Source of the DNA: a virus
Virus record (IMG/VR): IMGVR_UViG_3300033149_000928
Location: 20,414 to 84,413 of that record
Length of the DNA stretch: 64,000 bases
Direction: 5' to 3' (one strand)
The position numbers and the translations under genes are program-made. The notes under the pieces were generated by a model. That model did no database searches, was not told the origin of the DNA, and saw nothing but the letters and a program-made list of their open reading frames with translations. Positions 895 to 64,000 of the stretch are shown here, piece after piece. Within the stretch, counting starts at the first letter, position 1. Every line of letters starts with the position of its first letter.

Positions 895-964
895 CATAAG
901 CTCCTTGTGTAACCCATTGATTTAGTAAATCAAAGTGGTGAGTATACTTCCTCGCCACTCTAAA

Positions 965-2572
965 TTAGAATGAACCACCATCAACCGCAGCAACGGAAAG
1001 CGTTCCAGCAGCATGAGTAAGAGAATCATTGTCAATGGTAAGACCAACACCATTAGCACCAACAGTAACTTGACATACAGTTGCACCAGTTGTATCATCA
1101 GGATCGACTGAGAGTGTACTTCCACCACCACCTGCAATACCATTGCCTTGTGTTGCCAACTGCAACTGTGCTGAGCCATCAGCCTCGATACCGACACCAT
1201 CAATCGCAGCCACATCTACCGCAACACCATTAGCTCCTACACTGACAGGAACCAAATCACCACCAGACTCTGAGTCAGGATCAACAGAAAGTGTTGAACC
1301 ATTACCACCAGCAATACCATTACCTTGAACAGCTAGACGGAGATTAGCTGAACCATCAGCCTCGACACCAGTACCGGCAATCGCTCCAATATCAACACCG
1401 ACACCATTGGCTGTGATATTAGCTGGCTGGATATCTGAACCCGTTTCCGAGTCGGCATCAACGCTAAGCGTGGAACCATTACCACCGGCAATACCATTAC
1501 CCTGTGTTGCAAGGCGGAGATTAGCTGACCCATCAGCTTCAACACCAGTACCAGCAATCGCTGAAATATCAACACCAGCACCATTAGCAGTAAGATTTAC
1601 AGGTTGGACATTTCCGCCAGTCTCAGAATCAGCATCAACACTCACGATATTCGTGGTGATGTCGATACCGTTACCAGCACTAAGGCCCCCACCTTGGTTA
1701 ATAAGTACCCAAGCACCAGTAGGTACAGTACCATCGAAGGCATACTGATTATTATCGTAATAGCCCTCTTGAACCATTATAGCATTGCCTTCAACTGCAT
1801 CTCCTGAGGCAACACCAGTTAATGATGTTCCATCGAAGTCAACTACCTTACTATTATCCGTATTATCCGTATATGGAGAGATAAGTGCCGTACCAGTATC
1901 GGGGGCTAAAGCGGCTCTTACACCATCAGCAACAAAACCACCAGCACCAGTGGTAATTTTGACCCATGCTGATCCACTATATTCCCAGATATCACCAATT
2001 GCTGCCGCTGCCATACCTGCCGCACCATCAGCAGTTGAAACCGTATAGGCGTCACCAGTATTAGTTAAGACTTCGATAACCGATGCCGCAGCGTTACCAA
2101 CGAGATTCAGAACATCAATCGGCTCTTTCCAACTTGTACCGGCAACCGCAGCATTAATAGCGGTCTGAATCTTAGAGGCAGTCCAAAGTTCAGAGGTCGT
2201 AGTTCCGCCATCATCGACAGCTTTCCCTGAGTCCTGACCTTTACCGTTGGCATCAAGACTTACGAGGTTATCTTCAGTACCGCCGATATCCGAAGTGATC
2301 TCGTCCCACGTTGCACCGTTATCCACAAACAACTCGTCAGTATCAGTAGCATAGAATAACCTACCAGCGACTGCCGCTGAGGGGATACTACCAATAGCAG
2401 CCATAATAACACGACCAACGAGTAGATTAGATGCACCATCACCTACCCATAGTTCTTTTTGGTCATCGGTAGTGAAACCAAGTTCACCCGATGCTAATGT
2501 AATTCCATCGAGAGCAGCCTTTGTACCTTTTCGTACTATGATAGTAACACCATACCAATTGCGGATTCTCAT
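965..2572 (-). CDS. Tail fibre-like virion protein with three to four internal ~59-aa repeats
   Basis: Same VRKGT..LASGELGFTTD..ELWVGDG N-terminal motif. Repeats of SVDADSETG..ANGVGVDI.AIAGTGVEADGSANLRLA.QGNGIAGG. Ends in DGGSF. Has the MRIRNWYG leader. Confidence 0.75.
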   Translation of the reverse strand: MRIRNWYGVTIIVRKGTKAALDGITLASGELGFTTDDQKELWVGDGASNLLVGRVIMAAIGSIPSAAVAGRLFYATDTDELFVDNGATWDEITSDIGGTEDNLVSLDANGKGQDSGKAVDDGGTTTSELWTASKIQTAINAAVAGTSWKEPIDVLNLVGNAAASVIEVLTNTGDAYTVSTADGAAGMAAAAIGDIWEYSGSAWVKITTGAGGFVADGVRAALAPDTGTALISPYTDNTDNSKVVDFDGTSLTGVASGDAVEGNAIMVQEGYYDNNQYAFDGTVPTGAWVLINQGGGLSAGNGIDITTNIVSVDADSETGGNVQPVNLTANGAGVDISAIAGTGVEADGSANLRLATQGNGIAGGNGSTLSVDADSETGSDIQPANITANGVGVDIGAIAGTGVEADGSANLRLAVQGNGIAGGNGSTLSVDPDSESGGDLVPVSVGANGVAVDVAAIDGVGIEADGSAQLQLATQGNGIAGGGGSTLSVDPDDTTGATVCQVTVGANGVGLTIDNDSLTHAAGTLSVAAVDGGSF

Positions 2573-2655
2573 TACATTTCTCCTATGTGTAAATTGATTT
2601 ACTAAATCAAAATCTAAAGCCAGTAATTAAAAAGCTCCCATTAACTAAAGTCTCA

Positions 2656-3520: not shown

Positions 3521-4180
3521 TTATGGACAAGTACGCAGAATATGTATTAACTTAATATTAACATCAACAGAACCTATAGACTCATAACGAAATCTAACAT
3601 AGATACCAGCAGGAATAAGTTTTGCATCTGAACAACAACACTCAAACTCCCAATTAGCCCATACATAATTAGTAGCTGCGAATTGTCCTAATACAAAATC
3701 TGCTCCATAGCCAAGAATATTATCGACATCAACCATTTCCACTTCAACATAATCCCCATCCTCTGGGTTCGCATCTAATTTAAATCCTATTCCTTGTAAC
3801 ATCATATTTTCAGTGTATTTTACTTCATGTTCTAATGTTTCCTCAGCCGTAGCTGTAATATTATATCCTTTACGGAAAATATTATAACCTGTAAGTTCCT
3901 GGAAACCATTCACTTGAACAGGTGCAGGTATATCCTCTGGATTAGGTACACCTGTATGGGCCTCTACAATTGCTTGGAGAGTTGTTTGGTCTCCAGAGGA
4001 CAATACATCTTTAAACCATATGTCTACGGTATCTCCATCCATATCAATATAGTCAACCGCTATTGATATCGAGGATGCGGATATCTCCTCTTGCAATGTC
4101 GTTAAATCTGGTGTTGCTTCTGTTAAACCCGTAAAATCAGTAGTTATTGATTTCGCGTATTTAGTTGGGGTTGGCATCAA
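3521..4180 (-). CDS. Putative virion structural protein
   Basis: 219-aa acidic ORF coupled to its upstream gene in the tail module. Confidence 0.6.
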   Translation of the reverse strand: MMPTPTKYAKSITTDFTGLTEATPDLTTLQEEISASSISIAVDYIDMDGDTVDIWFKDVLSSGDQTTLQAIVEAHTGVPNPEDIPAPVQVNGFQELTGYNIFRKGYNITATAEETLEHEVKYTENMMLQGIGFKLDANPEDGDYVEVEMVDVDNILGYGADFVLGQFAATNYVWANWEFECCCSDAKLIPAGIYVRFRYESIGSVDVNIKLIHILRTCP

Positions 4181-5793
4181 TTAATCCTCCACAATACAAG
4201 TCTAACTCTACGTATACTTACTTGCTTACCAGATGTAGCTGATGCATAGTCTATATCAAAAGTATGTGCTGCATTAGTTAATGTCCTAATAGCGAAACCA
4301 GCCGTAGCCTCATAGCTATTAGTATCTGTTTGAATATTTTGATTCGCTAAATCAGTAGAATTATCTTCTTGTACACGAAAAGCAACATCAGTGCTAGTAC
4401 CATTTCTAGCTACCTCAACCGACCATCCAACATAGTAATCTCCAGCTGGAATAACACTTGTAAGCATCGTAGCTTTCGTTTGCCAACTTACACTTGTAGT
4501 TGATGATACGCCTTCAGACTTAGCTTCGTGAAATTGTGAACCAAATATAGCGTCTATAGCTGTATTGAGATTACCAAGTTGTACCCGTTTCTTTGCGTTT
4601 GCTACAGCGGAGTCCTCAATAACTATAAGATCAGTTGCTATTGGTGTGGACTTCTCAACAATAGAAACAATCTCACCTGATATATTGTCATGTATAGCAG
4701 TTGCATCAGCACCATCATCTACTGAAGGATTTGGATATGTTCCATTTAAATCCCCACCTGCTGTTCCAGTTGGTATACGGGGTGTAGTAGTATCATCAAG
4801 TGTCGCATCTGTAATCTTAGTATTTAGATTTGCAAGAGTATCTGCTATATGTGCCGACCCACCAAGCGCATGTGTAATACCTGTACTTAAAGTACTAAGT
4901 AAAGCTTTCTTTTTACTATAAGAATCCGCACTATCTTCAATAATAATAATATCTGCATTAACAGGGGTACCCTTCGCACTAATAGCATTAATCTCACCAG
5001 GTATATTATCATGGATAGCTACATGATCGTCGCCATCTGGTAGACCAAGAGTACCTCCACCAGTTATTGAGGTAGTACCAGATACTTCCGTAGCAGTAAG
5101 ATATAACGTACCAGTATCCACATCATAAGCTGTAGATGCCTCAAGTATCGAAGTAACTACGGATACCGTACCAGTACCATCAACCTCAATACCAGTACCA
5201 CTAGGAGCTTCAATATGTTCTACTGTAACAATAATACTACCAGTATCATCAACATATAATGCTGTACCTGCTCCGCTAACCTCAATATGATTAAACTTAG
5301 CGAAGATTTTACCAGTTGTAGCTGCGTCTCCAATAGCGATACCAGTATCAACTAAAGCTTCATGTCCTATGAGTTCAAGTTCACCAGCAGCACAATGAAC
5401 ACCGTTGGCTCCACTTGTTGCTTCAAGGATTTCAATAAATGCTTTTGCTCTACCTGCTCCAGCAGTTTTTGAAATTACTGTTCCACTCGCAACTATACAC
5501 CAATGAGCTAAGAGATATGCTTCATCTCCAAGAATATGATTACCTACAAGCTTAGCAAATGGAGCTTTCAAAACTACATAAGGTGGTATTGTTAAATTCT
5601 CAGTATATATCCCACCATCGACAACTAAAATACCAATAATATTAGAGGCACTAGGAGTATCGCCACTAGCAGCCGCAAGAGCAGCAGTAGCTGTTAAGAA
5701 TGGTTCACTAAGACTTTTGCCTGTATTGGTATCTAAACCATACTTAGCAACATAATATTGCTGTATAGAATCTGGCAATGGAGTATACGCCAT
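4177..5793 (-). CDS. Tail fibre/spike protein with beta-helix-like N-terminal region
   Basis: YYVAKYGLDTNTGKSLSEPFLT is a DUF1565/pectin-lyase-like start. Internal duplication (AIHDNI.GEI..I..K.TP...D.I.IEDSA). GGDLNGTYPNPSV fibre motif. Confidence 0.65.
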   Translation of the reverse strand: MAYTPLPDSIQQYYVAKYGLDTNTGKSLSEPFLTATAALAAASGDTPSASNIIGILVVDGGIYTENLTIPPYVVLKAPFAKLVGNHILGDEAYLLAHWCIVASGTVISKTAGAGRAKAFIEILEATSGANGVHCAAGELELIGHEALVDTGIAIGDAATTGKIFAKFNHIEVSGAGTALYVDDTGSIIVTVEHIEAPSGTGIEVDGTGTVSVVTSILEASTAYDVDTGTLYLTATEVSGTTSITGGGTLGLPDGDDHVAIHDNIPGEINAISAKGTPVNADIIIIEDSADSYSKKKALLSTLSTGITHALGGSAHIADTLANLNTKITDATLDDTTTPRIPTGTAGGDLNGTYPNPSVDDGADATAIHDNISGEIVSIVEKSTPIATDLIVIEDSAVANAKKRVQLGNLNTAIDAIFGSQFHEAKSEGVSSTTSVSWQTKATMLTSVIPAGDYYVGWSVEVARNGTSTDVAFRVQEDNSTDLANQNIQTDTNSYEATAGFAIRTLTNAAHTFDIDYASATSGKQVSIRRVRLVLWRIN

Positions 5794-6564: not shown

Positions 6565-6599
6565 ATCATTTCCTTTGATTTACTAAATCAAATTGTAAT

Positions 6600-7537: not shown

Positions 7538-7587
7538 GGGTACTGTCTCCTTTGATTTAGTAAATCAAAGCGGCGAAGCCGCCTCCC

Positions 7588-10500: not shown

Positions 10501-11649
10501 AAAAGCATTCTGTACAGCAGAAAGAAACTGTACTGAAGCAGCGGCATCTGAAACACCAACAAGTGCTAATTCATTAGCAGATTTTAAGAAACCAAAGGCT
10601 TCCGCACCTTTAGCTACTTGGTTAGATAAAGTTTGATATGCAGCTTCAGCTTGATCTAATAAATCAAAACCAAAGGCATCACTTAGTTCACGTAATCCTT
10701 CTGCCCATCTATCGGTAGTGAGTTGATTCTGTTGAGAAATCGTTCGGATTTCTGAGATACGTATACTAAACTCAATCGCATCTTCCGTTGCTCTTTTCAC
10801 TTCTTGAATAAATTTACTTACTGCTCTATGGATAACTTGCACAACGACAACACGTAAGAATGTTTGCCATGAGAGAGTAAGTTTTTGTACCCGATCTTTA
10901 GCAGTATCTAAACTTTCATTTAATGGTTTAGTTGAAGATGCGACTCCAATAAGCTGACCATTGACACTGGTTAAAGTTGCAGTAAGTTTTTGTCCATCTG
11001 TAGTTGTAGCATTCCAGATTTCTTGAGTACGATTTGATGCCGTATTTATTTTCTTTGATATTATAAGTCCTTCTAATTGACCTTTATTCTTTTGTTGTTG
11101 TAAAAGATTAAGTTCATTTTGTGCTCTCTTCATTTGATCGGCAAGTTTATTTTCAGCGCGTATTCTTGCTTCCGTTGTTTGTGCTTGCTTGATCCTAACA
11201 CTAAGTAAATTATTCTCTGCATCTGCAACAACTTGCACTGTATTACCAGTGGCATCTAAACCCGACCTAACTAATTTTTGTAATTTACCATTCTTATCAA
11301 GTACAGTATTAATTCTTAAGAGTGTTTTAATACGTTGATTAGCTACTTCATCAGCACGTAATCCTGCTTTAGTACCTTCTTTTAAAGGAGGAATAACTCC
11401 TTCTTGAGCCGCTATGTAATCCTCAAGTTGTTTTATTAATTGACCTAATCCCTTAAATGACCCTACCTCAGTATTAAATTTACTCATACTCTCAGTAAAT
11501 GCTGCTACACCTTTATTTAAATCTAAGAATGCATCTCTTAATTTATTTATTTCTGCAATAGAATCCCTAGTGTCGAAGACAATATCTCCGCCAAACTCTT
11601 CGCCACCATACCATTTACGATTTTTGATTTGGTAAATCAAACTGTCCAC
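7588..11649 (-). CDS. Tape measure protein
   Basis: 1353 aa, helical/coiled-coil, with a TP901-type TMP core, a central TM segment and a C-terminal GG.VPG..DTVPAMLTPGEFV motif. Confidence 0.9.
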   Translation of the reverse strand: MDSLIYQIKNRKWYGGEEFGGDIVFDTRDSIAEINKLRDAFLDLNKGVAAFTESMSKFNTEVGSFKGLGQLIKQLEDYIAAQEGVIPPLKEGTKAGLRADEVANQRIKTLLRINTVLDKNGKLQKLVRSGLDATGNTVQVVADAENNLLSVRIKQAQTTEARIRAENKLADQMKRAQNELNLLQQQKNKGQLEGLIISKKINTASNRTQEIWNATTTDGQKLTATLTSVNGQLIGVASSTKPLNESLDTAKDRVQKLTLSWQTFLRVVVVQVIHRAVSKFIQEVKRATEDAIEFSIRISEIRTISQQNQLTTDRWAEGLRELSDAFGFDLLDQAEAAYQTLSNQVAKGAEAFGFLKSANELALVGVSDAAASVQFLSAVQNAFNLTLDDTANIAAQTFKTIELGRVRLDEMANTIGQSAVPAANLGLSFTDLAAAITTVTIRGVPFEKAQTAIRNILLKLIRPTAEMTKLFREWGVVSGEAAIAAFGFGGVLAKIEERTKGSSSELGKIFGRIRAISGAMVFAGRGLKTFENNWKELQEAQASYEVALKETLTNTGREIRIEVNKIKNFFTEEIGRDLIDTIKFVNDNVLSLSDSVKLFASVITVFLAPAIGLAAAALVSLNLAIIVTPFGALVAGLTAAGIGLKLAFDSVTNSYDEAIKEADDFYNESVKKLKDQTTARLKIIESGYEVEFRLAKAAIAQVQSVLSKQLDTQVGLDKELANGLKLAYQDVIKSIQAGIKDLNDILKDSEKTIEQTTKNIADLKRELASNILREQLDSAVDVQAKQRLLIAEAQKQFVAAISITGTDQQSQRNARAAFDITKKLLEEAAKLQSDTAEKNESNEKEVNKLRERGKKAATDLENLRLKAADKRLTFENKIDARIRAGARISITSVNGEIKSIQSKDKAVLKAQRDQERFERENNERIRKLLTVTANITQEIKERQPIEIEQLEISKAQNALIKQRIEFEKELAEAAKQATKEAKEETERREKNLKLIQEQSREISKLKVKDLIGVDDVDEQIVNLLKALKDVDKARETIEKASVKDPKTAIVAQEQLAKKEAQIEETLKKKLLEQELETVRKTIKLQEEGLKNRIKVQKEAELKLRGSEPAARTDLISTFAKLGPDFAKFRADLAPFLKDPTAKGAAVLIKTIEDFERSQQELAPFFRGQRSEEGVAAISTFEDAVLRLFRITRDNNAVSELKKLTEASKKQVEESRKAFDKTFGLTEQADRDRNDHLKKIEKAQTVDIPALLAQIRDKVGPLGRAAGGDVPGSTDTVPAMLTPGEFVMNARSARKFHTQLVAMNAGIQPFQGGGSVTNVGDVNINMQSSGNEAYDVTKVGKLLQRQIRRKTLRF

Positions 11650-12846: not shown

Positions 12847-12887
12847 TTGCTCCACGGTTTGATTTACTAAATCAAACCGTGGAGCAA
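12847..12887. terminator. 41-bp perfect palindrome (20-1-20) built around the 17-bp motif; possible terminator/operator after the major tail gene
   Basis: TTGCTCCACGGTTTGATTTA-C-TAAATCAAACCGTGGAGCAA. Confidence 0.6.
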
Positions 12888-15628: not shown

Positions 15629-15701
15629 TTTGTTTATTTCTTTTGATTTAGTAAATCAATTTGGCTCAGCCAGTGGCGTAGCCAGTGGCGCAGCAGAGGG
15701 T

Positions 15702-20356: not shown

Positions 20357-20461
20357 CTTATATTGTCCTTCTGTTTAATAACTTATATTTAGTAACTATG
20401 CTTCTTTTGATTTACTAAATCACAACCTCATTTGACTCACCTGAGCCGCGTAGCGGCTCCC

Positions 20462-43058: not shown

Positions 43059-43102
43059 GATTAATAACCTTTCACTTCCACAAACTGATTTAGTAAATCA
43101 AA

Positions 43103-50764: not shown

Positions 50765-50988
50765 TTGTTTCTCCTATAGGCATACTTTAGTTACACTTTG
50801 ATTTACTAAATCAAACTAAATCTCAGTGGCTACTTTATGGAGCGAACCATCATTAGCCATTTGATAGAAAGCTCCATCAGCCTGCAACAAACAAATATCC
50901 AGAATTCCAGCTTCAACAGAAGTTATATCACTTTCAGTTACTTCATCTTGCTGAATCATTGTACCATCTTCAAAGATCAAAAGATACT

Positions 50989-51225: not shown

Positions 51226-51247
51226 TTCTCTCCTTTGATTTAGTAAA

Positions 51248-51646: not shown

Positions 51647-51885
51647 TTGGGTTCTCCATAGCTACCAGCAGGGATATCAATATCTGTGTTCCCATAATGT
51701 TCTTCCCATCTGGATATATTGATAATAGGGTGTCCTTCTTTCAATCCAGAAGTTGTATCTGTTGCCTCTTGGACGTATTCAATCTTTAAACAATATTCTC
51801 GATCTGGATCTTTTATTGCAACCTCCTTATCTAATTGATCTTGATTTAGTGAATCAAGCCAGTCTTTAAGTTCCCTGTAGGTCAT
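51643..51885 (-). CDS. Hypothetical protein
   Basis: MTYREL...L..L...QLD family. Confidence 0.6.
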   Translation of the reverse strand: MTYRELKDWLDSLNQDQLDKEVAIKDPDREYCLKIEYVQEATDTTSGLKEGHPIINISRWEEHYGNTDIDIPAGSYGEPK

Positions 51886-52145: not shown

Positions 52146-52580
52146 TGCAATCCTCCTTCAGCCAAGCCTTCACTATCTCAGGACTACCCCAACATGCACT
52201 TGGCATCTCATTGTGGGCATAGTAGACTATCTGAGGAAGAACCCACATATTATTATGGTCGGCCCTTCCAACTGCTTCCCGTAAATCATTCTCAAGAACC
52301 GCCCTTAAGAAATCTCCAGTAGGTATCCGACTATTAACATAATCTTTGAGAGAGAGAGTAATGTATTCATTGGAATATCAGAGGCATCAGAGATATTATA
52401 CATTACTCTTCTCCTCACGTTCCTGTCCATCGAGAGCTTTCTGAATGATAGCCGTGACTTCATCGCTATCCGTAACCACATCCAAACCAAACTGCTCACC
52501 GATCACTTGCATGATTTCTCTCATTGCAAACTCTGCACGATCAATCATCTCAAACTTCCTTTCTGATTTACTAAATCAAA

Positions 52581-53578: not shown

Positions 53579-54241
53579 TTAAAGTCTTTTCCTTAACTTC
53601 TCCTGTACCTTCAAAAGTATTTGCCAAATATATCCAGTAGAGACTCCAAGCCTCTTGGCAATTTCATTATTTGTGTAACTCATTAATTTTAGTTCAACAA
53701 TCTTTCGTTGCATACCCGGAAGTTGATTTAGGAAATCATTTATGATAATATCGTCTTCATCATATTGCGGAGGCAATACTACATTCTCGGCATCATTATA
53801 ATATTCACCAGCATCTTGATCCATACTGCGATTAGCTATTGACATTGTATATGGAACTAAATCCGCCGGGCCTCTTATTAACTTATCATTTTTTAGGTAA
53901 TCAGAGATGTGGGAATGAATTTTTAATGTTATGTATCCTGAGATATTATCATGGTCCAGATGCTCACGTGCTCTATCTACTGCTTTAACTAAACCTAACA
54001 TAGCAGCCGATACTATATCATCTTTCTTATGAGGATATCGTCCAACATAACCACCACATATTTGGAGGGTAAGTCTCACATGCCCAAGTATTAAATCATC
54101 TTTAACACTATCATCGCCTTGCTTGTGAGCTTCTGTCTTGGCGTGGAGTTCTTCTTCGGACATTTGATTTGGTAAATCAGATTGTCCAAGTGGGTGTACT
54201 ACGCTGTATCTGATTCTCTTCTTTATATTTCCTAGGTACAT
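53579..54241 (-). CDS. Sigma-70 family RNA polymerase sigma factor
   Basis: Region 2 (LILGHVRL...DDIVSAAMLGLVKAVDR) and region 4 HTH (YTNNEIAKRLGVS). Confidence 0.8.
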   Translation of the reverse strand: MYLGNIKKRIRYSVVHPLGQSDLPNQMSEEELHAKTEAHKQGDDSVKDDLILGHVRLTLQICGGYVGRYPHKKDDIVSAAMLGLVKAVDRAREHLDHDNISGYITLKIHSHISDYLKNDKLIRGPADLVPYTMSIANRSMDQDAGEYYNDAENVVLPPQYDEDDIIINDFLNQLPGMQRKIVELKLMSYTNNEIAKRLGVSTGYIWQILLKVQEKLRKRL

Positions 54242-54244
54242 TTC

Positions 54245-54660
54245 CCTCTCCCTTTAGTTTTGATTTACTAAATCAAAAAGTTTGATTTGATTTAGTAAAA
54301 TAATATAAGAGCCGTGGAATTGATTTGATTTATTGTTTTGATTTTCTCCTTTGGGTCCAGATATAGAGCCGCATATATACATTATACTCTATAGACTATC
54401 TTAGTCAAACGATATTATCGGAAATCCCGTATGTCCTTATATATCAACAGGTTACAAGTGCAAATAATCCACAATTTCTCTCGGATAATTTTGCATATAC
54501 TTTGGCACGATATTTGCTAGTTAATCAAAATAAAACTATAGAATCAAAATAGTAAATCAAATCAAAATATACCTATAAAAATCAAATCAAAGATTTAATA
54601 ATATTTAAAATTTGATATCAAATTTGATTTACTAAATCAAATAACTATTATACACATTAT
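54245..54660 (-). promoter_or_regulatory. AT-rich intergenic control region dense in 17-bp palindromes and half-sites
   Basis: Full sites at 54260 and 54624, many TTGATTT/AAATCAA half-sites, and a 25-bp IR at 54430. Confidence 0.6.
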
Positions 54661-55520: not shown

Positions 55521-55889
55521 TTAATTCTCCGGGTGCGTAAGATTCTCCGTCCAATCGTCCCGGCAATCCGGTAGGTTATTGACATTGCAGAAATGATTTG
55601 CTAAATCACAAGGCTCTGCTGATCCATGCTTGGCACCGAAAGTAGCTGTTATACTACGGGTAGTTAGCCATGCTACAAATCCTATGACTGATTCCCTAGC
55701 ATTAAGACAAGATACTTCAACCCCCATTTTATCTAATTCCTCTTTAGCTTTTGGTGTAGGTTTACCCAATTCAGCAATAGTAGTATCAACTTCCTTTTCT
55801 AATTCTATTTTTCCTTTTTCTACTTTCTCTGGATCATTAGATTTAGCAAGACTCTTCATTAAATCATTCATCTCTTTTTCTTGTTGCAT
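55521..55889 (-). CDS. Hypothetical protein
   Basis: AGGAG RBS. Confidence 0.6.
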   Translation of the reverse strand: MQQEKEMNDLMKSLAKSNDPEKVEKGKIELEKEVDTTIAELGKPTPKAKEELDKMGVEVSCLNARESVIGFVAWLTTRSITATFGAKHGSAEPCDLANHFCNVNNLPDCRDDWTENLTHPEN

Positions 55890-56482: not shown

Positions 56483-56792
56483 CTGCTTTCTCCTTTTTCA
56501 CCTGTTCTGTATACACACGTTTAACTTCATACATTTTCTTCTTTAATGCTTCCCTAGCTTTCCGAAGTATAACTTGTTCTTGGAGATCATTTAGCCCTAA
56601 TAAAGCATACCTCTCCCAAATTTCATCTGGCACTAAATTCTTTGCTGCAACGTAATCTTTAAACGTCTCCGAAAGAGCTTCCGTGGTTAAATGGCTCGGA
56701 AATTTTAGCCCTAATTTCTTCAGTTCTATTCTTATTTCTTCGTCGCTGACCTTTTCCGGCCTCCGAAGAGGGCGTCGTGCCGGTACTGCCAT
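56382..56792 (-). CDS. Hypothetical protein
   Basis: GGAGG RBS. Confidence 0.6.
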   Translation of the reverse strand: MAVPARRPLRRPEKVSDEEIRIELKKLGLKFPSHLTTEALSETFKDYVAAKNLVPDEIWERYALLGLNDLQEQVILRKAREALKKKMYEVKRVYTEQVKKEKADAKKEKSKHKVTGKTPKGVHRKGKGKQTTPSDS

Positions 56793-57168
56793 CTTGATCC
56801 TCCTCCTTTATATAAGTATAACTTGGAAAATATAACTGTATTGCTACTTCATGATTTTTGATTTGTGAAATCAAAATATCTCGGGCTTCTCTTCCCCAAT
56901 TCGGTATACGTAATTTCTGTGCAAGTTGACGTATCTTCATTATTCCCCAATCTTCAAGAGTTTTACTTTCTTGGATATCCATATCAATAATATCGAATAT
57001 AGTATCTGAAACTATATTATGTAAGAAATCTAAAATAGTTTCAAGTGTTTCTTCATCTATTTCATCACGCTGGAGATAATATTCTAAACGTCTAAATCTA
57101 TTTATTTTCTTCCTTATCTCCAGAAGTACATCTACTTTTCTCCCCATGATTTTATCCCTACTTTCCAA
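56659..57168 (-). CDS. Hypothetical protein
   Basis: ORF track. Confidence 0.55.
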   Translation of the reverse strand: MESRDKIMGRKVDVLLEIRKKINRFRRLEYYLQRDEIDEETLETILDFLHNIVSDTIFDIIDMDIQESKTLEDWGIMKIRQLAQKLRIPNWGREARDILISQIKNHEVAIQLYFPSYTYIKEEDQDGSTGTTPSSEAGKGQRRRNKNRTEEIRAKISEPFNHGSSFGDV

Positions 57169-59354
57169 TCCATAGATATTAATGGCACATTAGGTCTAAA
57201 CCTTTCTAATATTCCATCACTGATCTCTTTAGTCTTAGCCGCATACTCTGGAAGTACTGGACACATTATTTCATCGTGAACATTCATAGGCATTACAATC
57301 CATTTACTTACTCCAACTGGTTGGAGTCCCCATAAAGCTAACTCCAGTTCTTTAGTTATAGTAGCCCCTGGTGATTGGATAACATGATTACCAGCAGCCC
57401 TCATATTTTGACCTTGGATATTGAAAGCCGCAGCATATAACGCTGACTGAAGTGCCCCTGAAACAGTCTGATCACGATCACGCCTATGGACTTTGATTTT
57501 ATATCTCTTCCATTCTTTCGGAGGGTCTTGAGCTAAATCAAATAGTGCTTTGCAAATACGATTCTCAAGAGTAAAGTATCGTTTAAAATTAAACATACTC
57601 TCAACGTAATCTGCTGGATCATGCCATTCTACGGCTGTGCCGATACCTCCAGGTTGCCTCATACTACAGAATGCGTCAAAGACTTTTTGTCTTGACCTAT
57701 GTACTCCTGGGAACTTCTTCCCGAAACCTTCATGTGCTTGTAATGCTATCTCTGGAGAGATACCAAGCTTAGTCTCAAGAGTATATTCTGTGCCGCCATA
57801 TGCCATTCCAAATACACCTTGTTTACCATCTTTATAACGTGTACCATTAACATATTGATTGAGGAAAGCTCCTGTATTTTCTTCCTCGATGATCTCTTCG
57901 TAAGTTGATCCTGGATAGAGTTCAATAGCGAAGATAGCATGTATTTTCTTACCTTCAAGTAATGCTTCTCGAAGTTTAGGATCATCCCATTCTGCTTCCA
58001 TTAATGTAACTTCAAATGAGTCATAGTCACCACCACATAATATCATACCTTTAGGTGCTAATCCAAATTTAGATCGAACTTTCTTATCTTTCTTAATACC
58101 TTGAGGGTTGAGTCCATCAGAGCCTGACATCCTTGTACTCTTCGTTCCGATGACACTGAACCCTGCAAAGAATTTCTTAGCTTTGATAAGTTTACCATAA
58201 AGTTTAATTTCTTCTGTAGCTTCCCTTGCATCGAGAACTTGCTGTGCGGCCTTGGCTGCTGGATGAATCTCCTCTCCCTGACGCCATTTAGCAATCTCTT
58301 GTAATACAACTTTCTTTGTACTTGACTGGACAACGATCCTCTCAGTTTCATCCATATATTGGATAACATATTTACGTGCTTGTGTTGGAGCAGTAGGTGC
58401 GCTTTCTGCTACTACCTTAGCTTGATTTGCTAAATCAATTATCCCTTCAACATCAATCTCGAACCCATGCCATCTTACTGCACCAACCATACAAGCCAAT
58501 TCCGAATCTGTATCCCCAGGTTCGGGATCATTGAAATGATGATATAGACCTCTAGTGTAGACAACATCATCTTTCGCGTAGCGTTTAGCAATCGGATTAT
58601 GCGCCCAATATGCAATATGATGCCGAAGTATCTCAGGCCAACTCCCACCATAAGGGACATACTTATCTTCCTTTGGCATCCACTCTTTCTCGATACCTAC
58701 TTCGTGACCCATAAGAAGGATGTCATCTTCCTTGACCCCTAATGCGTCTATGGCAAGAGCTTTCAATGCAGAAGAGGAATCGAACTTCAATTCGATATCC
58801 TTAAAGTCTGTATTCATCTCCCCTTCATCATCAATAATATCCCTTACTTGCCATTGTGGAGTATCCTTCTTCTTTCTCCTGGCAAAGTATATATCATTAA
58901 GAGGTATTAATTCTTCAAGTTTAGCCGCTAAACTACGTGCTAATACCGTTGGAACACGTTTAATACGTATCGGCTTACGATTCATAGTTGATTGATATGG
59001 ACCTTTCCTCGCATGTAACATAAGATCACATGCCGCAGCGGGTCTCAAACAAGGACCGTTAGTTGCAGCATACTCTCCCTCTGCTAATACAGGAATAATA
59101 TCCTCTGGTATATCGTGATGATTCGTATGCTGGAGGAACATCGTATAAATCTTGCAAAGATGGAAATGATCAAATGCCAAGTTGAAGCCTACAATCTCAT
59201 TCTCCATGAAATATTCAATAAGCTTCATTGTCTCATAGATAGGAACCTTCCAGATATTGTGGAGGACAATAGGACCATCTTCCTCAGCATACTGAATGAG
59301 GACTGCTGGACCCTTGAATCCACAGGTTTCTGTATCTATGTATATTCTAGCCAT
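57132..59354 (-). CDS. Family A DNA polymerase with 3'-5' exonuclease
   Basis: ExoI DTET, ExoII FNLAFD, ExoIII YAKDD. Motif A DYDSFE, motif B R...KQGVFGMAYG, motif C VHDE. Confidence 0.92.
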   Translation of the reverse strand: MARIYIDTETCGFKGPAVLIQYAEEDGPIVLHNIWKVPIYETMKLIEYFMENEIVGFNLAFDHFHLCKIYTMFLQHTNHHDIPEDIIPVLAEGEYAATNGPCLRPAAACDLMLHARKGPYQSTMNRKPIRIKRVPTVLARSLAAKLEELIPLNDIYFARRKKKDTPQWQVRDIIDDEGEMNTDFKDIELKFDSSSALKALAIDALGVKEDDILLMGHEVGIEKEWMPKEDKYVPYGGSWPEILRHHIAYWAHNPIAKRYAKDDVVYTRGLYHHFNDPEPGDTDSELACMVGAVRWHGFEIDVEGIIDLANQAKVVAESAPTAPTQARKYVIQYMDETERIVVQSSTKKVVLQEIAKWRQGEEIHPAAKAAQQVLDAREATEEIKLYGKLIKAKKFFAGFSVIGTKSTRMSGSDGLNPQGIKKDKKVRSKFGLAPKGMILCGGDYDSFEVTLMEAEWDDPKLREALLEGKKIHAIFAIELYPGSTYEEIIEEENTGAFLNQYVNGTRYKDGKQGVFGMAYGGTEYTLETKLGISPEIALQAHEGFGKKFPGVHRSRQKVFDAFCSMRQPGGIGTAVEWHDPADYVESMFNFKRYFTLENRICKALFDLAQDPPKEWKRYKIKVHRRDRDQTVSGALQSALYAAAFNIQGQNMRAAGNHVIQSPGATITKELELALWGLQPVGVSKWIVMPMNVHDEIMCPVLPEYAAKTKEISDGILERFRPNVPLISMDWKVGIKSWGEK

Positions 59355-59373: not shown

Positions 59374-59715
59374 CTACGTCACATCCTCTGCACCCTCAGT
59401 GAACCCATCATTATATCCCATGTTATATTGATCTTCTACCTTCTTCTTTAACCTTGCAATATAAACAATAACTGCCTCAACTGCTGACATACCATTAGGA
59501 TATTGTTCGTTAGTTGTAGGTAAATCACAATCTTGTTCCAAGATGAAATCTGCTAACTGTTGACAATTCTTACAAGTATCAGTGTCCTTATTATCCTTAC
59601 CCATTAGTCCATACTCCCATATAGTACATATTACCCATAACCTTACGTATCCGCTTCCAATCTGGGAAGTCCCTTGCTGCCCAAACACTACTATGATAAT
59701 TAAACTTATTACCAT
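59374..59715 (-). CDS. Hypothetical protein (start likely MGKD, ~59604)
   Basis: ORF track, GGGAG before the internal ATG. Confidence 0.5.
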   Translation of the reverse strand: MVISLIIIVVFGQQGTSQIGSGYVRLWVICTIWEYGLMGKDNKDTDTCKNCQQLADFILEQDCDLPTTNEQYPNGMSAVEAVIVYIARLKKKVEDQYNMGYNDGFTEGAEDVT

Positions 59716-60106
59716 AACACCAATACCCAGGCTTATCAGTATTCTTAGTATTATTATCCCAGATAAGGGGTGTTACTAAAATAATCTTCCCTCCACATAT
59801 TCTCTTCGCATCTTCTAAAACCAACTCTCCACGACGTTTGGATAAATGTTCAATGAAATCTATCATTAGTACAACGTCAAATTCTCTATCGTCAAAAGGG
59901 AATAGTTCATCATTGAGGTCTATAGTATAATTAGGTTGAACATTAGGCCAAGCGTCCAAGGTTGTAGCATTAGGTAAATGTTTAGAGTATTGCTTATCCC
60001 CGCATCCAACATCGAGAATACTATCAGTAATCTCAACATTTTGATTTACAAAATCAAATAGCTTTTTCATTTGATAAACAACTTTCCAATTAACAATATG
60101 GGCCAA
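59597..60106 (-). CDS. Class I SAM-dependent methyltransferase
   Basis: ILDVGCG, PFDD.EFDVV...DFIEHL and LVTP. Confidence 0.8.
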   Translation of the reverse strand: MAHIVNWKVVYQMKKLFDFVNQNVEITDSILDVGCGDKQYSKHLPNATTLDAWPNVQPNYTIDLNDELFPFDDREFDVVLMIDFIEHLSKRRGELVLEDAKRICGGKIILVTPLIWDNNTKNTDKPGYWCYGNKFNYHSSVWAARDFPDWKRIRKVMGNMYYMGVWTNG

Positions 60107-60246: not shown

Positions 60247-61125
60247 TTACGTCCTCTCAGCATTCACATCCATACCTGCCATCGAAGCAACACTCTCAGA
60301 CGGTATAATATATGGCCGACCTGCTTTATCTGCTATCGCTCTAATCTCCTGATAAATTGCATTATCAGTAATCTCACCTGTAGCCCAAGCCAAACAACGT
60401 GTACCAAAATTATTTCCTACTGACTCTTGGATATGATCCATCATTATGAAAATTTCATTCTTCCTTCTGAGTCTTCTCGCAAGTGATGACTCCGTTTTCT
60501 TCATCCTAATAATCGGAGTCTGTTCTCCTTTTTCCTTTGCCACTTTAATTTTCTTAACCGCCTCGAACTGCATTTCCTTTGTCGGTAGATTCTTGAGATC
60601 ACGAATCTGATGTTGAGTAATGAACCCTGCTGCCGCTTGTTCCTGAATCTCATTAGGTAACTGCAAGAGATAAGTTCTAATCTGTACCCAACCAAAGGAC
60701 TTCCCTAATTCCGCAGCGATCTCCTGCATAGTCATATTAAAACTATTTAGATGCTTAACAGCTTGAGCCTCTTCTACGATGTTAAGGTCTTTACGTAGGA
60801 GATTTTCTCGAAGATTAATAATCCTTGCATCTTTATCATTATCAACCCCACTAATTACACACTTAATAGTTTTAGCCCCTAATACTTTATGTGCTGTAAA
60901 TCTCCTGAATCCCGCTATAAGTCTCCAAGGATATTCCGTCCCAAGATGTTCCTTCTCATACTTCTGGATAATGACAGGAGCTAATAAACCATTCTTCTCG
61001 ATATCCCTTGCAAGTTCTTGTACATCCATCGGAGCGATATCACCACGACAATTAAAACTTTGATCTACAAGAATCAACTTCAACGGAAGATTCATAATCT
61101 CATTATTTGTGATAGTTTCAGGCAT
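60247..61125 (-). CDS. ParB/RepB/Spo0J family protein
   Basis: FNCR, LARDIEKNGLLAPV, LIAGFRRF, NLRENLLRKDLN..EEA, and HTH (QEIAAELGKS). Confidence 0.88.
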   Translation of the reverse strand: MPETITNNEIMNLPLKLILVDQSFNCRGDIAPMDVQELARDIEKNGLLAPVIIQKYEKEHLGTEYPWRLIAGFRRFTAHKVLGAKTIKCVISGVDNDKDARIINLRENLLRKDLNIVEEAQAVKHLNSFNMTMQEIAAELGKSFGWVQIRTYLLQLPNEIQEQAAAGFITQHQIRDLKNLPTKEMQFEAVKKIKVAKEKGEQTPIIRMKKTESSLARRLRRKNEIFIMMDHIQESVGNNFGTRCLAWATGEITDNAIYQEIRAIADKAGRPYIIPSESVASMAGMDVNAERT

Positions 61126-64000
61126 TCGTTTCTCCTTCTTCTCCAGACTCACTACCATATACAATAGTATCAACTTCTCTAGGTAGTTTCATTGTCATAC
61201 AATTCTTCATAGCTCCAAGACTCATAGCCTGGAGATCACGTTTCTTCTTTAGATTCTCTAGTATAAGGACATCTGTTTCCAGGTGAATAATATCAATAAT
61301 AGTAGCACCAAGATTGACATCCATACCTGAACGGTGGATACGATCTTCTGACTGTATCCTACTCTCAGCATTGAAGTCATTACTATAATAAATGATGACT
61401 GGAGATGCTGTAAGATTAAGACCCATACCAGCAGCCCCAGGTTGACCAACAAAAGCTATACGCGGATATTTCTCTAATAGTTCTTTCCGGCGTGGATGGG
61501 TACGATCCATAGCGATAAGGAGTTCATCACTATTTGTTGCTTGGTTTGGATCATCACCTATGGGATTGAAGATATGCCATCCTCGACCATCTACACGTAA
61601 TACAACCCATTTCCTTTCAGTACAAGTCGATGTAATACGATCAATGGACCCAGTGAAACCACCATAGATTACTACTCGACCCTCTTCATCATATTGATCT
61701 AGTAAATCAATAAGGACATTAACCTTTGGGCAGGGCACTTCTTGTACTATACGTGTTTTCTTATCTACTTCTTTTCTTCCACCACACGTATCACAAATAA
61801 CCATTTCCCCTGTAACTTCTTCATCTTCACTTGGTCCCATCCTACTCATTTTAGTATTTAAATCTTCTTCATTATTATTACCTTCTTCATTTTCTTCCTC
61901 TTCACTCTCATATACAGCCGCATTAACTTCTCCAGCGCCTTTACAACGTGGACAGGTTTCTTTACCTACAACCTCTTCCCGATACTGGAATCCATCGCTC
62001 AGTTCCCTTGCCAATGTCAAACCAGTTACAACTCTAGGGGCTGTATCAATAATAGTCTTAGCTACTTGCAATATGGATTGTGTTGGTTTACACTCAATAA
62101 TTTTGTATGTTTTCGCAGGGAGATCAAGACAATCTTCTTTGAAAATAACTACTGCAAGTCCCTTCATACGACGATAAAGTGCCTCTATTTCATTCTTTGA
62201 CTTAGTGAAATGATGGGAACTTACACTTGTTAAGTCATGGTTAATATGATCCTCGAACTCACCACATTCTTTACATTTATTTTCATCATCTAGCCAAGTT
62301 ATTAGATAAGGGTATGTGCCTCCGGTAATCTGTTGTTCACGTTGAACAATTAATCCAAGTCTATTTTTGAATTTATTAATATCTCCTTCTTTTAAGAAAC
62401 CTGGACAACTTACTTCACAATTATGAGCTACAAGACCATTAGCAGAAAAACAATGTTCCTCTGGTACTGTAATATCATAGACATCTTCGATCTTATCCTT
62501 AGTTATTGAAGTTATTTTTGCTGTTTCTTTTGCTCTCCAAGTATGTCTATTTTTTATTCTCTTTTTTAATTTTTTATTTTTTCTAGGTATATTAAAGCCT
62601 ACTCTCTCATAAAAACGTACAGCTTCATTCCCTATTATTATTAATTCATAACTAATTAAAGAAGTATTAATTTCTCTACCTTTTATTTTTGATTTTTTAT
62701 TCTTTTTAGTTTGTAATGTACTATAAATACCTAAAGACTGCAACATTAATTGAACTTTATATATTCTATCTCTATTTACTTGACTCAAGGCTACATACAA
62801 TGTTGATTTCCTAACGTATCCATCAGCATCAAAAAATCCACTAAGAAATCCTTTTATGAAATCACTAGATGCAGATAACATAAGATTAGATATTTCTTTT
62901 TTACTATTTAGCTCCCATTCTTTTATTAATGAATTTATTTTACCCCCATAAATACGTTGAGATTCTCCTTGTATAGATATATTACTTTGATTAAGAATCT
63001 CTTGAACATAAGGCATAATACAAAAATCATCAGGGAAAAATTGCAATAAACCTCGTCCATTTTTATCTATTGATCCATCCCCATATAACAAACCAATAAT
63101 ATATCCATCTTCATATGTTCCGATACCATTCCAAGTATGGTAATGTCCAGAGTTAGATACTACAAGATTATCTCCTTCTTTTAATTCTTGTAATTCTCTC
63201 CAAATTGGAAAACTATCATAATCAACCATAAAACGATGATCTTCTGTAGCCCTTACTGAATAACCTTCTTTTGTTTCGATCTTATATAATTGTTTTGTTC
63301 CTGTTTTAAAGAAACCCTCCGTTTTAATCTTTTTCCCATTCACTATAATATAGCAAGTTTGATTTACTAAATCTTTAACGCTTCGTATACCTTCACTAGT
63401 GTTAATGTAGGTATCGGCAGGTATGCACTGGTTGTACCAATCAGCCGGACTCTTCGGTGCTGGAGAACCAGACAATAAGAGGCAGAAACCCTCCATTTTC
63501 CAGTCCTCTCTGATACCTTCAGCAAGTTGTAAAGCCGCTTGACTTCTAAGTGCCGTAGGTGTTTTAATTTTTGAGGACTCATCAAATATCACTCCATGTG
63601 GGGCTTTATCGTTACCGATCCACCCTCCAATAGTATCTCGTAATCCCTCATAGGTCATTACCACAGGTTTAACTTTACAATCCCATTTCGAAAATTCTAA
63701 TCTAGCTGCTTTCAATGCACTTCTCGGTCCGATCCAATACCAATCATCAAACCCACTTTGCTCCATAACCTCAATAGCCGCAAGGGATTTCCCTGTATTT
63801 TGATGATTAATACCATCATCTGTAAAATAATTTCCATACTTAGGTATCGTCAAATCATAGACTTTTTGATTTGGTAAATCAATGAACTCCGCATTCCTTA
63901 GTGGCAATACCTTCATTCTCTGCAATGAAGCAGGGAATAAATGTTCCGACTCTCTCGCTACTATGAAATGTCCAGGCTTCTCGAAATCTATCTGCTTTAT
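61118..64000 (-). CDS. SNF2-like superfamily 2 helicase with two inteins, partial (open to the window edge)
   Basis: TGKS, VIFDES, LLSGSP, GMGLNLT and QSEDRIHR motifs. The frame has no stop up to 64000. Confidence 0.9.
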   Translation of the reverse strand: MKQIDFEKPGHFIVARESEHLFPASLQRMKVLPLRNAEFIDLPNQKVYDLTIPKYGNYFTDDGINHQNTGKSLAAIEVMEQSGFDDWYWIGPRSALKAARLEFSKWDCKVKPVVMTYEGLRDTIGGWIGNDKAPHGVIFDESSKIKTPTALRSQAALQLAEGIREDWKMEGFCLLLSGSPAPKSPADWYNQCIPADTYINTSEGIRSVKDLVNQTCYIIVNGKKIKTEGFFKTGTKQLYKIETKEGYSVRATEDHRFMVDYDSFPIWRELQELKEGDNLVVSNSGHYHTWNGIGTYEDGYIIGLLYGDGSIDKNGRGLLQFFPDDFCIMPYVQEILNQSNISIQGESQRIYGGKINSLIKEWELNSKKEISNLMLSASSDFIKGFLSGFFDADGYVRKSTLYVALSQVNRDRIYKVQLMLQSLGIYSTLQTKKNKKSKIKGREINTSLISYELIIIGNEAVRFYERVGFNIPRKNKKLKKRIKNRHTWRAKETAKITSITKDKIEDVYDITVPEEHCFSANGLVAHNCEVSCPGFLKEGDINKFKNRLGLIVQREQQITGGTYPYLITWLDDENKCKECGEFEDHINHDLTSVSSHHFTKSKNEIEALYRRMKGLAVVIFKEDCLDLPAKTYKIIECKPTQSILQVAKTIIDTAPRVVTGLTLARELSDGFQYREEVVGKETCPRCKGAGEVNAAVYESEEEENEEGNNNEEDLNTKMSRMGPSEDEEVTGEMVICDTCGGRKEVDKKTRIVQEVPCPKVNVLIDLLDQYDEEGRVVIYGGFTGSIDRITSTCTERKWVVLRVDGRGWHIFNPIGDDPNQATNSDELLIAMDRTHPRRKELLEKYPRIAFVGQPGAAGMGLNLTASPVIIYYSNDFNAESRIQSEDRIHRSGMDVNLGATIIDIIHLETDVLILENLKKKRDLQAMSLGAMKNCMTMKLPREVDTIVYGSESGEEGETNA
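62420..63427 (-). mobile_element. Intein with LAGLIDADG homing endonuclease (336 aa)
   Basis: Q|CIPADT ... ATEDHRF ... IGLLYGDG ... LSGFFDADG ... VYDITV...ANGLVAHN|C. AT-rich relative to its flanks. Confidence 0.92.
63797..64000 (-). mobile_element. C-terminal part of a second intein, inserted in the helicase Walker A motif
   Basis: KVYDLTIPKYGNYFTDDGINHQN|TGKS (block F/G pattern). Confidence 0.8.

Follow-up and report, generated by a model that had tools for sequence, protein, structure and literature searches.

A 17-bp palindrome spread along the genome of an uncultured tailed phage, a probable docking site for a symmetric and possibly ParB-like protein

The 64,000-nucleotide stretch analysed here (the window) comprises positions 20414-84413 of an 84,413-bp virus record from IMG/VR (IMGVR_UViG_3300033149_000928; hereafter G000) and carries, between genes and within them, many copies of a 17-bp palindrome, TTGATTTASTAAATCAA. 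We found that selection acts on these copies as DNA and not as protein, and that they are spread along the genome more evenly than random positions would be. We propose that they are docking sites for a symmetric DNA-binding protein of the phage, probably one of two partner-less ParB-family proteins, a reading to which we give a probability of roughly one half. Its parts differ in strength: the sites are very probably a protein target at the level of DNA, and the chance that their reader is a ParB-like protein is about even. Positions below are those of the window unless given as genome positions.

All 18 perfect copies reported by a first-pass annotation of the sequence were present in the window at every coordinate given for them, compared with none in 100 dinucleotide-preserving shuffles. 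The 15-bp core TGATTTANTAAATCA occurred 32 times, comprising the 18 perfect copies, one site with a central A at 25553 and 13 extra core sites, each of which had been listed before, some of them one base off where the start of the 17-mer had been quoted. With up to three mismatches allowed, the window holds 55 copies against 0.42 expected (largest shuffle, 4). These take in all 16 variant sites of the annotation and eight beyond its list (4339, 10651, 25552, 28708, 45583, 54287, 55593 and 56858). The excess over a shuffled control, on which the annotation had let its claim stand or fall, is thus present, and the wide spread of the sites holds, with the density corrected from about one per 1.3 kb to one per 1.16 kb (55 in 64 kb). 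Across the whole genome we counted 69 sites: 25 perfect, 24 with one mismatch, 13 with two and seven with three.

Genes were called heuristically, by greedy selection of the longest open reading frames (ORFs) followed by start refinement with a Shine-Dalgarno rule, so that counts of site context are approximate. Of the 69 sites, the raw ORFs contain 43 and leave 26 between them; once starts are refined, 41 sites fall wholly in coding sequence, 24 wholly outside it and four straddle a boundary. Non-coding DNA makes up about 13% of the genome yet holds 24 of the 69 sites, an enrichment of about threefold. Within genes the consensus leaves one open frame per strand, and 39 of the 43 intragenic sites are read as peptides of the type x-D-L-x-N-Q; the remaining four use a second frame (L/V-I-Y/S-Q/K-I-K), open only when the TAA is changed to CAA or similar. 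The annotation had described just such a mixture of intergenic copies and copies imposing DLxNQ on unrelated proteins. Those it placed in the DNA ligase (46574), the family A polymerase (58422) and the helicase/intein ORF (61694, 63359 and 63866) are there, whereas of the two inteins it named we saw one, with a LAGLIDADG domain, at about residues 200-502 of the helicase ORF (61118-63925).

The choice of codons is proof of selection at the DNA level. The peptide DL[VL]NQ occurs 17 times in the proteome (25,507 residues), compared with 0.032 expected from amino-acid frequencies, and all 17 occurrences are spelled GAT TTA (C/G)TA AAT CAA, while TTA, CTA and GTA each account for 13-34% of the usage of their own amino acid. 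In 200 synonymous-codon shuffles, the codon-preserving control that the annotation had recommended, coding sequences contained a mean of 2.18 and a maximum of six sites with at most one mismatch, against 26 observed; for perfect copies the figures were a mean of 0.31 and nine. Third-position A is kept in 65 of 69 sites at TTA and in 64 of 69 at CAA, though G would be silent at either. At the central codon the second-position T is less constant (52 of 69) than these silent positions, which suggests that proteins escape the constraint there.

When viral contigs were searched for exact copies of the motif, chance single matches came up, save for one relative, G001, a 69-kb contig rated 75% complete and syntenic with G000. 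The two genomes align over only 20.4 kb, at 64-76% nucleotide identity, with one 74-bp match at 86%, and G001 has 57 sites of the same motif with up to three mismatches. Eighteen sites of G000 have surroundings that can be aligned at the protein level; G001 has a site at the same place in ten cases and none in eight, the losses including the polymerase site and one helicase site. The motif has therefore stayed fixed while its positions turn over. 

More distant relatives carry palindromes of their own, so that conservation in related phages, which the annotation had made a test of its claim, takes the form of the same motif in G001 and of other palindromes in other lineages. We gathered 42 capsid-relative loci and 97 relatives of one of the ParB-family proteins (ParB-like 1, described below), of which 80 were kept, and called a palindrome dominant at five or more copies and at least 0.28 per kb. 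G002 has GATTAWTAATC in 80 exact copies, or 183 including five one-mismatch variants, in 130 kb; G003 has 24 copies of TGGTAnnnnTACCA; and the loci L180, L225, L254 and L257 have, respectively, 20 copies of AGTTAnTAACT in 21 kb, 19 of GATTTnnnAAATC, eight of TGATAccggaTATCA and six of TGAGTtcaAACTCA. The architectures in these six relatives are 5-1-5, 7-1-7, 5-3-5, 5-4-5 and 5-5-5. Among 52 loci of at least 12 kb centred on ParB-like 1, 23 have a dominant palindrome, 24 have a top count of three or fewer and five fall between; a search of the motif-poor relatives for low-copy GATT...AATC palindromes near ParB-like 1 gave nothing convincing. The annotation had also proposed looking for the motif in candidate hosts. 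An exact scan of bacterial and archaeal genomes returned at least 120 matches, and those listed were single sites in unrelated taxa, so that among them there is no host signal and no sign of the motif as a host feature.

The palindrome behaves as a symmetric site. Oriented by transcription, its centre base is C in 31 copies, G in 27, A in six and T in five, and the balance of C and G indicates no directionality. Nothing is conserved in the flanks except a weak A after the site, and we saw no -10-like partner and no promoter element there. As RNA the palindrome would form a hairpin of -2.0 kcal/mol occupying 32% of the ensemble, and the related 13-bp motif of G002 one of -0.1 kcal/mol; variant sites have one arm altered without compensation. 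The annotation's 8-1-8 dyad, typical of a dimeric protein, is borne out by the absence of centre bias, the unconserved flanks and the marginal hairpin. An intrinsic terminator or other structured RNA was rejected on the two folding energies and the one-arm variants, and readings as a Chi-like site or a pac site were likewise rejected.

The sites are also regularly spaced. The coefficient of variation (CV) of inter-site distances is 0.68 in G000 (n=69), 0.69 in G001 (n=57) and 0.76 in G002 (n=183), compared with about 0.99 for uniform random positions; simulations at or below the observed value made up fractions of 0.0002 and 0.0006 for G000 and G001 and 0 of 5000 for G002. G003 (n=24) has a CV of 0.885, like random. 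Random subsets of 69 gene starts gave a CV of 1.06, with none of 5000 as low as observed, so placement at gene boundaries does not explain the evenness.

G000 is rated complete, with a 114-bp direct terminal repeat, and family searches identify a tailed phage with a tape-measure protein, a P22-type coat protein and a GpA-type large terminase. Replication families matched were a family A DNA polymerase, the intein-bearing helicase with its LAGLIDADG domain and a DNA ligase OB domain. A search of 114 further ORFs added, among others, two proteins with ParB_N and HTH_ParB domains, an RNase T-type exonuclease, a DUF5906 primase/helicase-like protein, an NYN-domain protein, a receiver domain and several transferases. 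Nucleotide and protein searches of 50,697 phage records found no close relative, identity reaching at most 24% for the terminase (TerL) and at most 33% for the capsid protein, with a best match of 34% for ParB-like 1.

By family searches, the only recognisable sequence-specific double-stranded-DNA-binding helix-turn-helix (HTH) proteins of G000 are the two ParB-like proteins and a sigma factor. ParB-like 1 (genome positions 3154-4110, outside the window) has ParB_N and HTH_ParB domains. ParB-like 2 (Table 1) scores 39.3 bits with PF02195, 47.4 with PF17762 and 23.7 with PF08535 (cut-off 22.3); Noc proteins are its best solved relatives (E 2.5e-18), and the KorB structure 8qa8 matches at E 1.6e-5. 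The canonical CTP-binding motifs of ParB are GERRxRA and ENLQRxDL. ParB-like 2, with GFRRFTA and ENLLRKDL, has versions that look canonical (GxRRxxA, ENxxRxDL), and those of ParB-like 1, GLQRFNA and TNLHKIET, appear degenerate. All five further relatives tested have two or three ParB_N genes. No HTH_3 protein was found in six frames of G000, and the candidate TerS (ORF 22124-22672), one of the binders that the annotation had put forward, had no match in Pfam and PHROG searches. A 216-aa core protein adjoining ParB-like 1 (genome positions 2463-3113, outside the window) has no family match and a model with a predicted local distance difference test score (pLDDT) of 89; its only structural neighbours, all weak (best E 0.04), are the OB-fold single-stranded-DNA binders RB69 gp32, BRCA2 OB and PrgE, and it is thus probably a single-stranded-DNA binder, not the reader.

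Several lines of evidence link the palindrome to ParB-like 1 and to putative early promoters. In the ParB-like 1 leader two perfect copies form the outer part of 27-bp inverted arms. In this leader (genome positions 4150-4305, locus L110) each arm is a palindrome with a GC-rich 10-bp extension, and a 76-nt spacer separates the two arms. The RNA fold of the leader has an energy of -54.5 kcal/mol (z -7.35), and an Rfam search of L110 positions 3900-5100 only gave just sub-threshold miRNA rows. The layout recurs in G004 and, built from GATTAWTAATC, in G002 and L243 with six copies each. Over 15 lineages, which are related to one another, site density predicts 5.6 sites in the 500 nt upstream of ParB-like 1, where 30 are present.

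Tandem half-site arrays, TGATTTGATTT-n4-TGATTTGATTT, stand at four places, three in the window (Table 1) and one at genome positions 4322-4346, and three of the four adjoin sigma70-like hexamer pairs. One array supplies the TTGATT of a 10/12 promoter-like match facing the rightward block, and two flank the 11/12 match before the sigma gene; these hexamers are consensus matches only, in numbers not above those in shuffles. Across the genome, isolated half-sites show no enrichment, numbering 85 where 79 are expected. Copies and arrays occur at three promoter-like regions, which belong to the operon of ParB-like 1, to the early block read rightward and to the sigma gene. The 5′ end of ORF 23638-24858 has a low-complexity N/Q-rich run (AAC CAA repeats) leading into the half-site array there, and may be coding or leader.

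We therefore envisage, from the sequence, a symmetric (dimeric) protein encoded by the phage, most likely ParB-like 1 or ParB-like 2, that would dock on the 17-bp palindromes. A site would be kept every ~1.2 kb, in short intergenic gaps where possible and otherwise in coding sequence as D-L-x-N-Q, giving an evenly spaced lattice from which no part of the chromosome is out of reach. Autoregulation and control of the sigma gene would come from the denser arrays at early promoter-like regions; the extra copies and arrays there suggest that the same protein probably also controls early transcription, by analogy with KorB on plasmid RK2. The lattice may serve to coat or mark the chromosome, to control transcription genome-wide, or both. 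The annotation had offered coating, silencing, segregation and self-marking. Even spacing fits coating or marking; segregation is unlikely, a ParA-type ATPase (AAA_31, PF13614) being unmatched in a six-frame search that did not extend to PF01656. Lysogenic silencing of the stoperator type also appears unlikely, as no tyrosine integrase was found in G000 by a search that did not take in serine integrases, and the sites are palindromic and not oriented.

Several observations weigh against a ParB-like reader. The pair of ParB-like genes fails to predict the lattice, since the 52 loci were chosen by ParB-like 1 and only 23 of them have a dominant palindrome, and G005 (102 kb), with three ParB_N genes, has none. 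Part of the excess of sites ahead of ParB-like 1 follows from the fact that sites in general favour non-coding DNA. Positions 173 and 201 set the specificity of ParB and Noc (Jalal et al. 2020, PMC7383237), and the aligned residues of ParB-like 2 are F/T/Y and H/Y/H among three genomes with the identical motif, in which the recognition helix of ParB-like 1 also varies. Only in the three class A genomes does ParB-like 1 have the residue pair N-H, its place being taken by T-E in G002, I-Q in L180 and Y-A or V-x elsewhere, a pattern that phylogeny alone would also give, and a crude Fisher test of covariation (Y against other residues, GATT against other half-sites; counts 7, 1, 6 and 6) yields P 0.16. 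Finally, no gene within 10 kb on either side of ParB-like 1 tracks the presence of a motif (best Fisher P 0.075).

Most of these points would equally suit a different symmetric protein, of phage or host, that family libraries fail to recognise, with the ParB-like proteins as bystanders having few sites of their own. We consider this unlikely but a live alternative, because about three quarters of the ORFs of G000 have no family match; in one searched set Pfam matches at E 0.001 or better were absent for 27 of 30. ParB-like genes in relatives without a dominant palindrome, the variable specificity positions of ParB-like 2 and the covariation result all favour it, and the authors of a study of Cluster O mycobacteriophages, discussed below, named several candidate DNA-binding proteins for a comparable repeat and thought a role of the ParB-like domain protein in genome stability unlikely (PMC4351075). 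Against it, no accessory gene near ParB-like 1 tracks the motif, which makes a core gene the more likely reader, the recognisable HTH binders are confined to the three named above, and site clusters occur in the ParB-like 1 leader of several lineages, each with its own motif.

It is improbable that the palindromes are marks for an enzyme, whether a methyltransferase, another base-modifying enzyme or a nickase, acting in self/non-self discrimination or anti-defence. Palindromes are typical enzyme targets, even spacing suits marking, and family searches show that G000 encodes methyltransferase-like, radical SAM, glycosyltransferase and sulfotransferase-like proteins. Nothing ties these enzymes to the motif, however, a fully specified target of 15-17 bp is far longer than usual modification sites, and the half-site arrays at promoter-like sites resemble cooperative protein binding.

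Placement relative to genes bears on a role in RNA, with the palindrome as a hairpin 5′ of ribosome-binding sites that acts in processing, as a 5′ stabiliser or as the target of a regulator of translation such as the NYN-domain nuclease (55055-55585). The centres of 29 of the 69 sites lie 8-60 nt upstream of the nearest start, compared with 5.6 on average and 14 at most in 1000 trials with random positions, and similar placement is seen in G001 (17 of 50) and G002 (45 of 183). That an NYN-domain protein is encoded also speaks for this role, which we nevertheless hold to be very improbable. The distance from site to start is not fixed (about 9 to 42 nt), the 41 fully coding sites include many deep within long genes, and in G003 only one of 24 sites is start-associated. 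Moreover, the centre base has no strand bias, the hairpins of both motifs are feeble, and what is conserved is sequence, not pairing. We take the start-proximal placement to mean that sites are put where their cost is lowest, and do not see in it a signal for start codons. In G003, 21 of the 24 sites are not fully non-coding.

Just as improbable is an origin of the sites as recombination or mosaic-boundary sequences, or as a spreading micro-element that shuffles cassettes, with protein binding secondary. The Cluster O authors saw two repeat-flanked indels (PMC4351075). In G000, 16 sites lie, mostly at gene boundaries, in a block of about 17 kb without blastp matches in relatives. Yet the sites have no conserved flanks and no target duplications, ten of the 18 orthologous positions in G001 keep their site, inside core genes, and neither even spacing nor lineage-specific change of the motif is predicted by such an origin. 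Least probable of all is that the sites serve the phage sigma factor as promoters or as elements associated with promoters. The motif does begin with TTGATT, resembling a -35 hexamer, and the sigma gene is itself surrounded by copies, but downstream of the sites there is no conserved -10-like element, and in many cases only 9-20 nt, including the ribosome-binding site, separate the end of a site from a start codon. The two-fold symmetry is perfect and the sites show no preferred orientation, whereas region 4 of a sigma factor binds as a monomer; the sigma factor was rejected as the reader since sigma factors read directional promoters, not palindromes.

Beyond G000, the ParB reading can be extended to a clade of uncultured tailed phages (at least 97 contigs with a relative of ParB-like 1) with a private 'chromatin', in which each lineage would have its own palindrome evenly placed every ~0.7-3 kb, in genes as well as between them, and a partner-less ParB-type clamp would load throughout and coat or mark the whole chromosome, site code and reader co-evolving lineage by lineage. 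We put this forward as a tentative possibility that we doubt more than we believe. If true, it would amount to a phage self-identity system that times expression, shields DNA from host defences or tells phage from host DNA.

The sites and associated features of the window are collected in Table 1. The block of about 17 kb (22700-39560) consists of small ORFs with no blastp match in G001-G005 and, except for DUF7352 at 38638-38907, no Pfam family; its 16 of the window's 55 copies give a density equal to that elsewhere. Two of its ORFs (30729-31532 and 32048-32950) are nearly identical to each other in the stretch that surrounds their copies (DLVNQNG.AVNQ), which suggests paralogy or a repeated module. 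The sole receiver-domain protein of the genome is a single-domain protein of 165 aa (14129-14626) within the structural module.

Table 1. Palindrome copies, half-site arrays and associated features in the window (window coordinates; mm, mismatches to the 17-bp palindrome).
Feature	Position	Strand	Context
copy, 0 mm	917..933		between ORFs, 19 nt from start of ORF 1..897
copy, 0 mm	2594..2610		between ORFs; 21 nt 5′ of ORF 965..2572
copy, 3 mm	4339..4355		inside ORF 4177..5793, TDLANQN
copy, 0 mm	6575..6591		between ORFs
copy, 0 mm	7552..7568		between ORFs
copy, 2 mm	10651..10667		inside tape-measure ORF, FDLLDQA; perfect at equivalent place in G001
copy, 1 mm	11624..11640		5′ end of tape-measure ORF, either in second frame or 5′ of the true start
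copy, 0 mm	12859..12875		between ORFs; kept in G001
copy, 0 mm	15643..15659		between ORFs
copy, 2 mm	17611..17627		inside ORF 17170..18120, TDLQNQL; identical variant in G001
copy, 1 mm	18038..18054		close to 5′ end of ORF 17170..18120
copy, 1 mm	20407..20423		between portal-side ORF and terminase ORF
copy, 0 mm	22943..22959		3′ end of + strand ORF 22703..22951
copy, 1 mm	23564..23580		between ORFs
copy, 2 mm	24691..24707		inside ORF 23638..24858, FDLSNQR
tandem half-site array	24795..24819	-	four TGATTT on + strand, offsets 0, 5, 14, 19
copy, 2 mm (central A)	25552..25568		non-coding region
copy, 1 mm	26752..26768		between ORFs
copy, 1 mm	27877..27893		inside ORF 27697..28149, SDLLNQM
copy, 3 mm	28708..28724		inside ORF 28492..28815
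copy, 0 mm	29128..29144		last 21 nt of ORF 29107..29550, VDLLNQS
copy, 1 mm	29618..29634		3′ end of ORF 29582..30037, NDLLNQK
copy, 1 mm	31383..31399		inside ORF 30729..31532, SDLVNQN
copy, 1 mm	32645..32661		inside ORF 32048..32950, GDLVNQN
copy, 3 mm	34467..34483		inside ORF 34361..34735, second frame
copy, 2 mm	35438..35454		3′ end of ORF 35399..35809, SDLQNQW
copy, 1 mm	36747..36763		between ORFs
copy, 1 mm	37244..37260		between ORFs
copy, 0 mm	38630..38646		overlapping stop of ORF 38638..38907
copy, 3 mm	40124..40140		inside ORF 39566..40528, CDLTNQV
copy, 0 mm	40612..40628		between ORFs
copy, 0 mm	41735..41751		between ORFs; 14 nt 5′ of a start
copy, 1 mm	43085..43101		between ORFs
copy, 1 mm	44142..44158		3′ end of ORF 44103..44357, SDLLNQA
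copy, 2 mm	45583..45599		inside ORF 45322..45924, FDFINQY
copy, 0 mm	46574..46590		inside DNA ligase ORF, IDLVNQE; perfect at equivalent place in G001
copy, 0 mm	47257..47273		3′ end of ORF 47215..47877, VDLLNQK
copy, 1 mm	47889..47905		3′ end of ORF 47877..48155, SDLVNQG
copy, 1 mm	48432..48448		3′ end of ORF 48387..48671, NDLLNQY
copy, 0 mm	49021..49037		between ORFs
copy, 0 mm	50798..50814		between ORFs
copy, 0 mm	51235..51251		immediately 5′ of AGGAG-ATG start
copy, 1 mm	51841..51857		5′ end of ORF 51643..51885
copy, 1 mm	52563..52579		between ORFs
sigma-factor gene, 220 aa, Sigma70_r2 + r4	53579..54241	-	two variant copies inside; copies and half-site arrays in leader
copy, 2 mm	53723..53739		inside sigma gene, NDFLNQL; 3-mm copy at equivalent place in G001
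copy, 2 mm	54164..54180		5′ part of sigma gene, SDLPNQM
copy, 0 mm	54260..54276		sigma leader, 18 nt 5′ of ATG
copy, 2 mm	54287..54303		sigma leader
tandem half-site array	54321..54344		downstream of promoter-like hexamers
sigma70-like hexamer pair TTGACT-16-TATAAT, 11/12	54381..54408	-	consensus match only
tandem half-site array	54554..54589		upstream of promoter-like hexamers, opposite orientation
copy, 0 mm	54624..54640		sigma regulatory region, upstream edge
copy, 3 mm	55593..55609		between ORFs
copy, 3 mm	56858..56874		inside ORF 56659..57168, second frame
copy, 1 mm	58422..58438		inside DNA polymerase A ORF, IDLANQA; no copy at equivalent place in G001
copy, 1 mm	60041..60057		5′ part of ORF 59597..60106
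ParB-like 2, 308 aa, candidate reader or clamp	60247..61173	-	ParB_N, HTH_ParB, KorB domain
copy, 1 mm	61694..61710		inside helicase ORF, IDLLDQY; no copy at equivalent place in G001
copy, 2 mm	63359..63375		inside helicase/intein ORF, KDLVNQT
copy, 1 mm	63866..63882		5′ part of helicase ORF, IDLPNQK

Among published systems, the Cluster O mycobacteriophages (Corndog and others) offer the closest parallel, a 17-bp dyad repeat present in 34 copies in Corndog and of no known function according to Cresawn et al. (2015, PMC4351075), who predict a dimeric binder and consider that most sites do not control the initiation of transcription. The two cases share a dyad of about 17 bp in more than 30 copies, intergenic, 5′-proximal and intragenic, without orientation and in company with a ParB-like domain protein; on the Cluster O side, the phage is described as a siphophage of roughly 70 kb with no integrase and no parAB, whose repeat is not in host genomes. 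In the right-hand 34.8 kb of Corndog we counted 26 copies, and the Corndog sites showed no clustering at its ParB-like gene. The Cluster O repeat differs in sequence and architecture (TGTTCGGNNNCCGAACA, 7-3-7, against 8-1-8 in G000), its density is half that in G000, and the phage is unrelated, Corndog gp90 and ParB-like 1 having 24% identity over 119 residues (E 5e-5). What G000 and its relatives add is evidence at the level of codons, even spacing, and a large uncultured clade with its own palindrome in each lineage. G000 itself is an unusually clean and dense case, with 69 copies measurably evenly spaced, and the relatives with different palindromes form a ready comparative series that makes an old curiosity testable.

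Two precedents invoked by the annotation, Noc and parS, fit in part. Like the Noc/NBS system of B. subtilis (Jalal et al. 2020, PMC7383237), G000 would combine a ParA-less ParB paralogue with tens of dispersed palindromes. However, the Noc specificity residues Q173, K179/K184 and R201 are not reproduced, ParB-like 2 having F/T/Y at 173 and H/Y at 201, a membrane-targeting N-terminal helix is not evident in ParB-like 2 by eye, and the density of G000 is far higher, with the sites on the element's own genome. Unlike ParABS, which has few parS sites near parB, G000 has 69 sites evenly spread, and AAA_31 was unmatched.

Cluster A stoperators are tens of short sites across a phage genome, mostly at gene boundaries with some in coding sequence. 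They are asymmetric, oriented with transcription and serve a lysogenic repressor (discussion in PMC4351075), whereas the sites of G000 are palindromic and unoriented, and the integrase search, which covered tyrosine and not serine enzymes, was negative. Microbacterium phages of Cluster EG have eight to ten 18-bp palindromes, 14-22 bp upstream of starts at one genome end (Jacobs-Sera et al. 2020, PMC7302621); these are kept despite divergence of their flanks, as in G000, but are fewer and confined to that end. Phages of Cluster EI resemble G000 in encoding a sigma factor and a pair of ParB-like proteins, whose genes lie side by side and have diverged; their repeats are 30 bp long and five in number (PMC7302621). 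A 2025 survey describes many orphan ParB-fold proteins in phages, with no sites assigned in the portions consulted (PMC12704722). In the literature searched, which did not cover subscription journals, we found neither a description of a phage ParB-palindrome lattice nor an assigned function for dispersed palindromes of lytic phages.

OB, the operator of KorB, is an odd-length palindrome with a central C/G, as is the palindrome of G000. By analogy, KorB and its 12 OB operators on the IncP-1 plasmid RK2 (McLean et al. 2025, PMC11790492) provide the best mechanistic model. ParB-like 2 has a KorB-type DNA-binding domain (PF08535), the sites of G000 lie both at promoter-like regions and far from them (41 of 69 fully coding), and control of the protein's own operon is plausible. 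The differences are that RK2 has 12 sites in 60 kb and G000 about 69 in 84 kb, many of the latter in coding sequence; that a ParA/IncC partner was not found with PF13614 and no KorA was recognised, without a separate search for KorA; and that the replicon is a tailed phage with terminal repeats, not a plasmid. If the reader is indeed a ParB-family protein, biology of the KorB/Noc type would extend from plasmids and chromosomes to virulent-type phages, and many orphan phage ParB genes would be explained.

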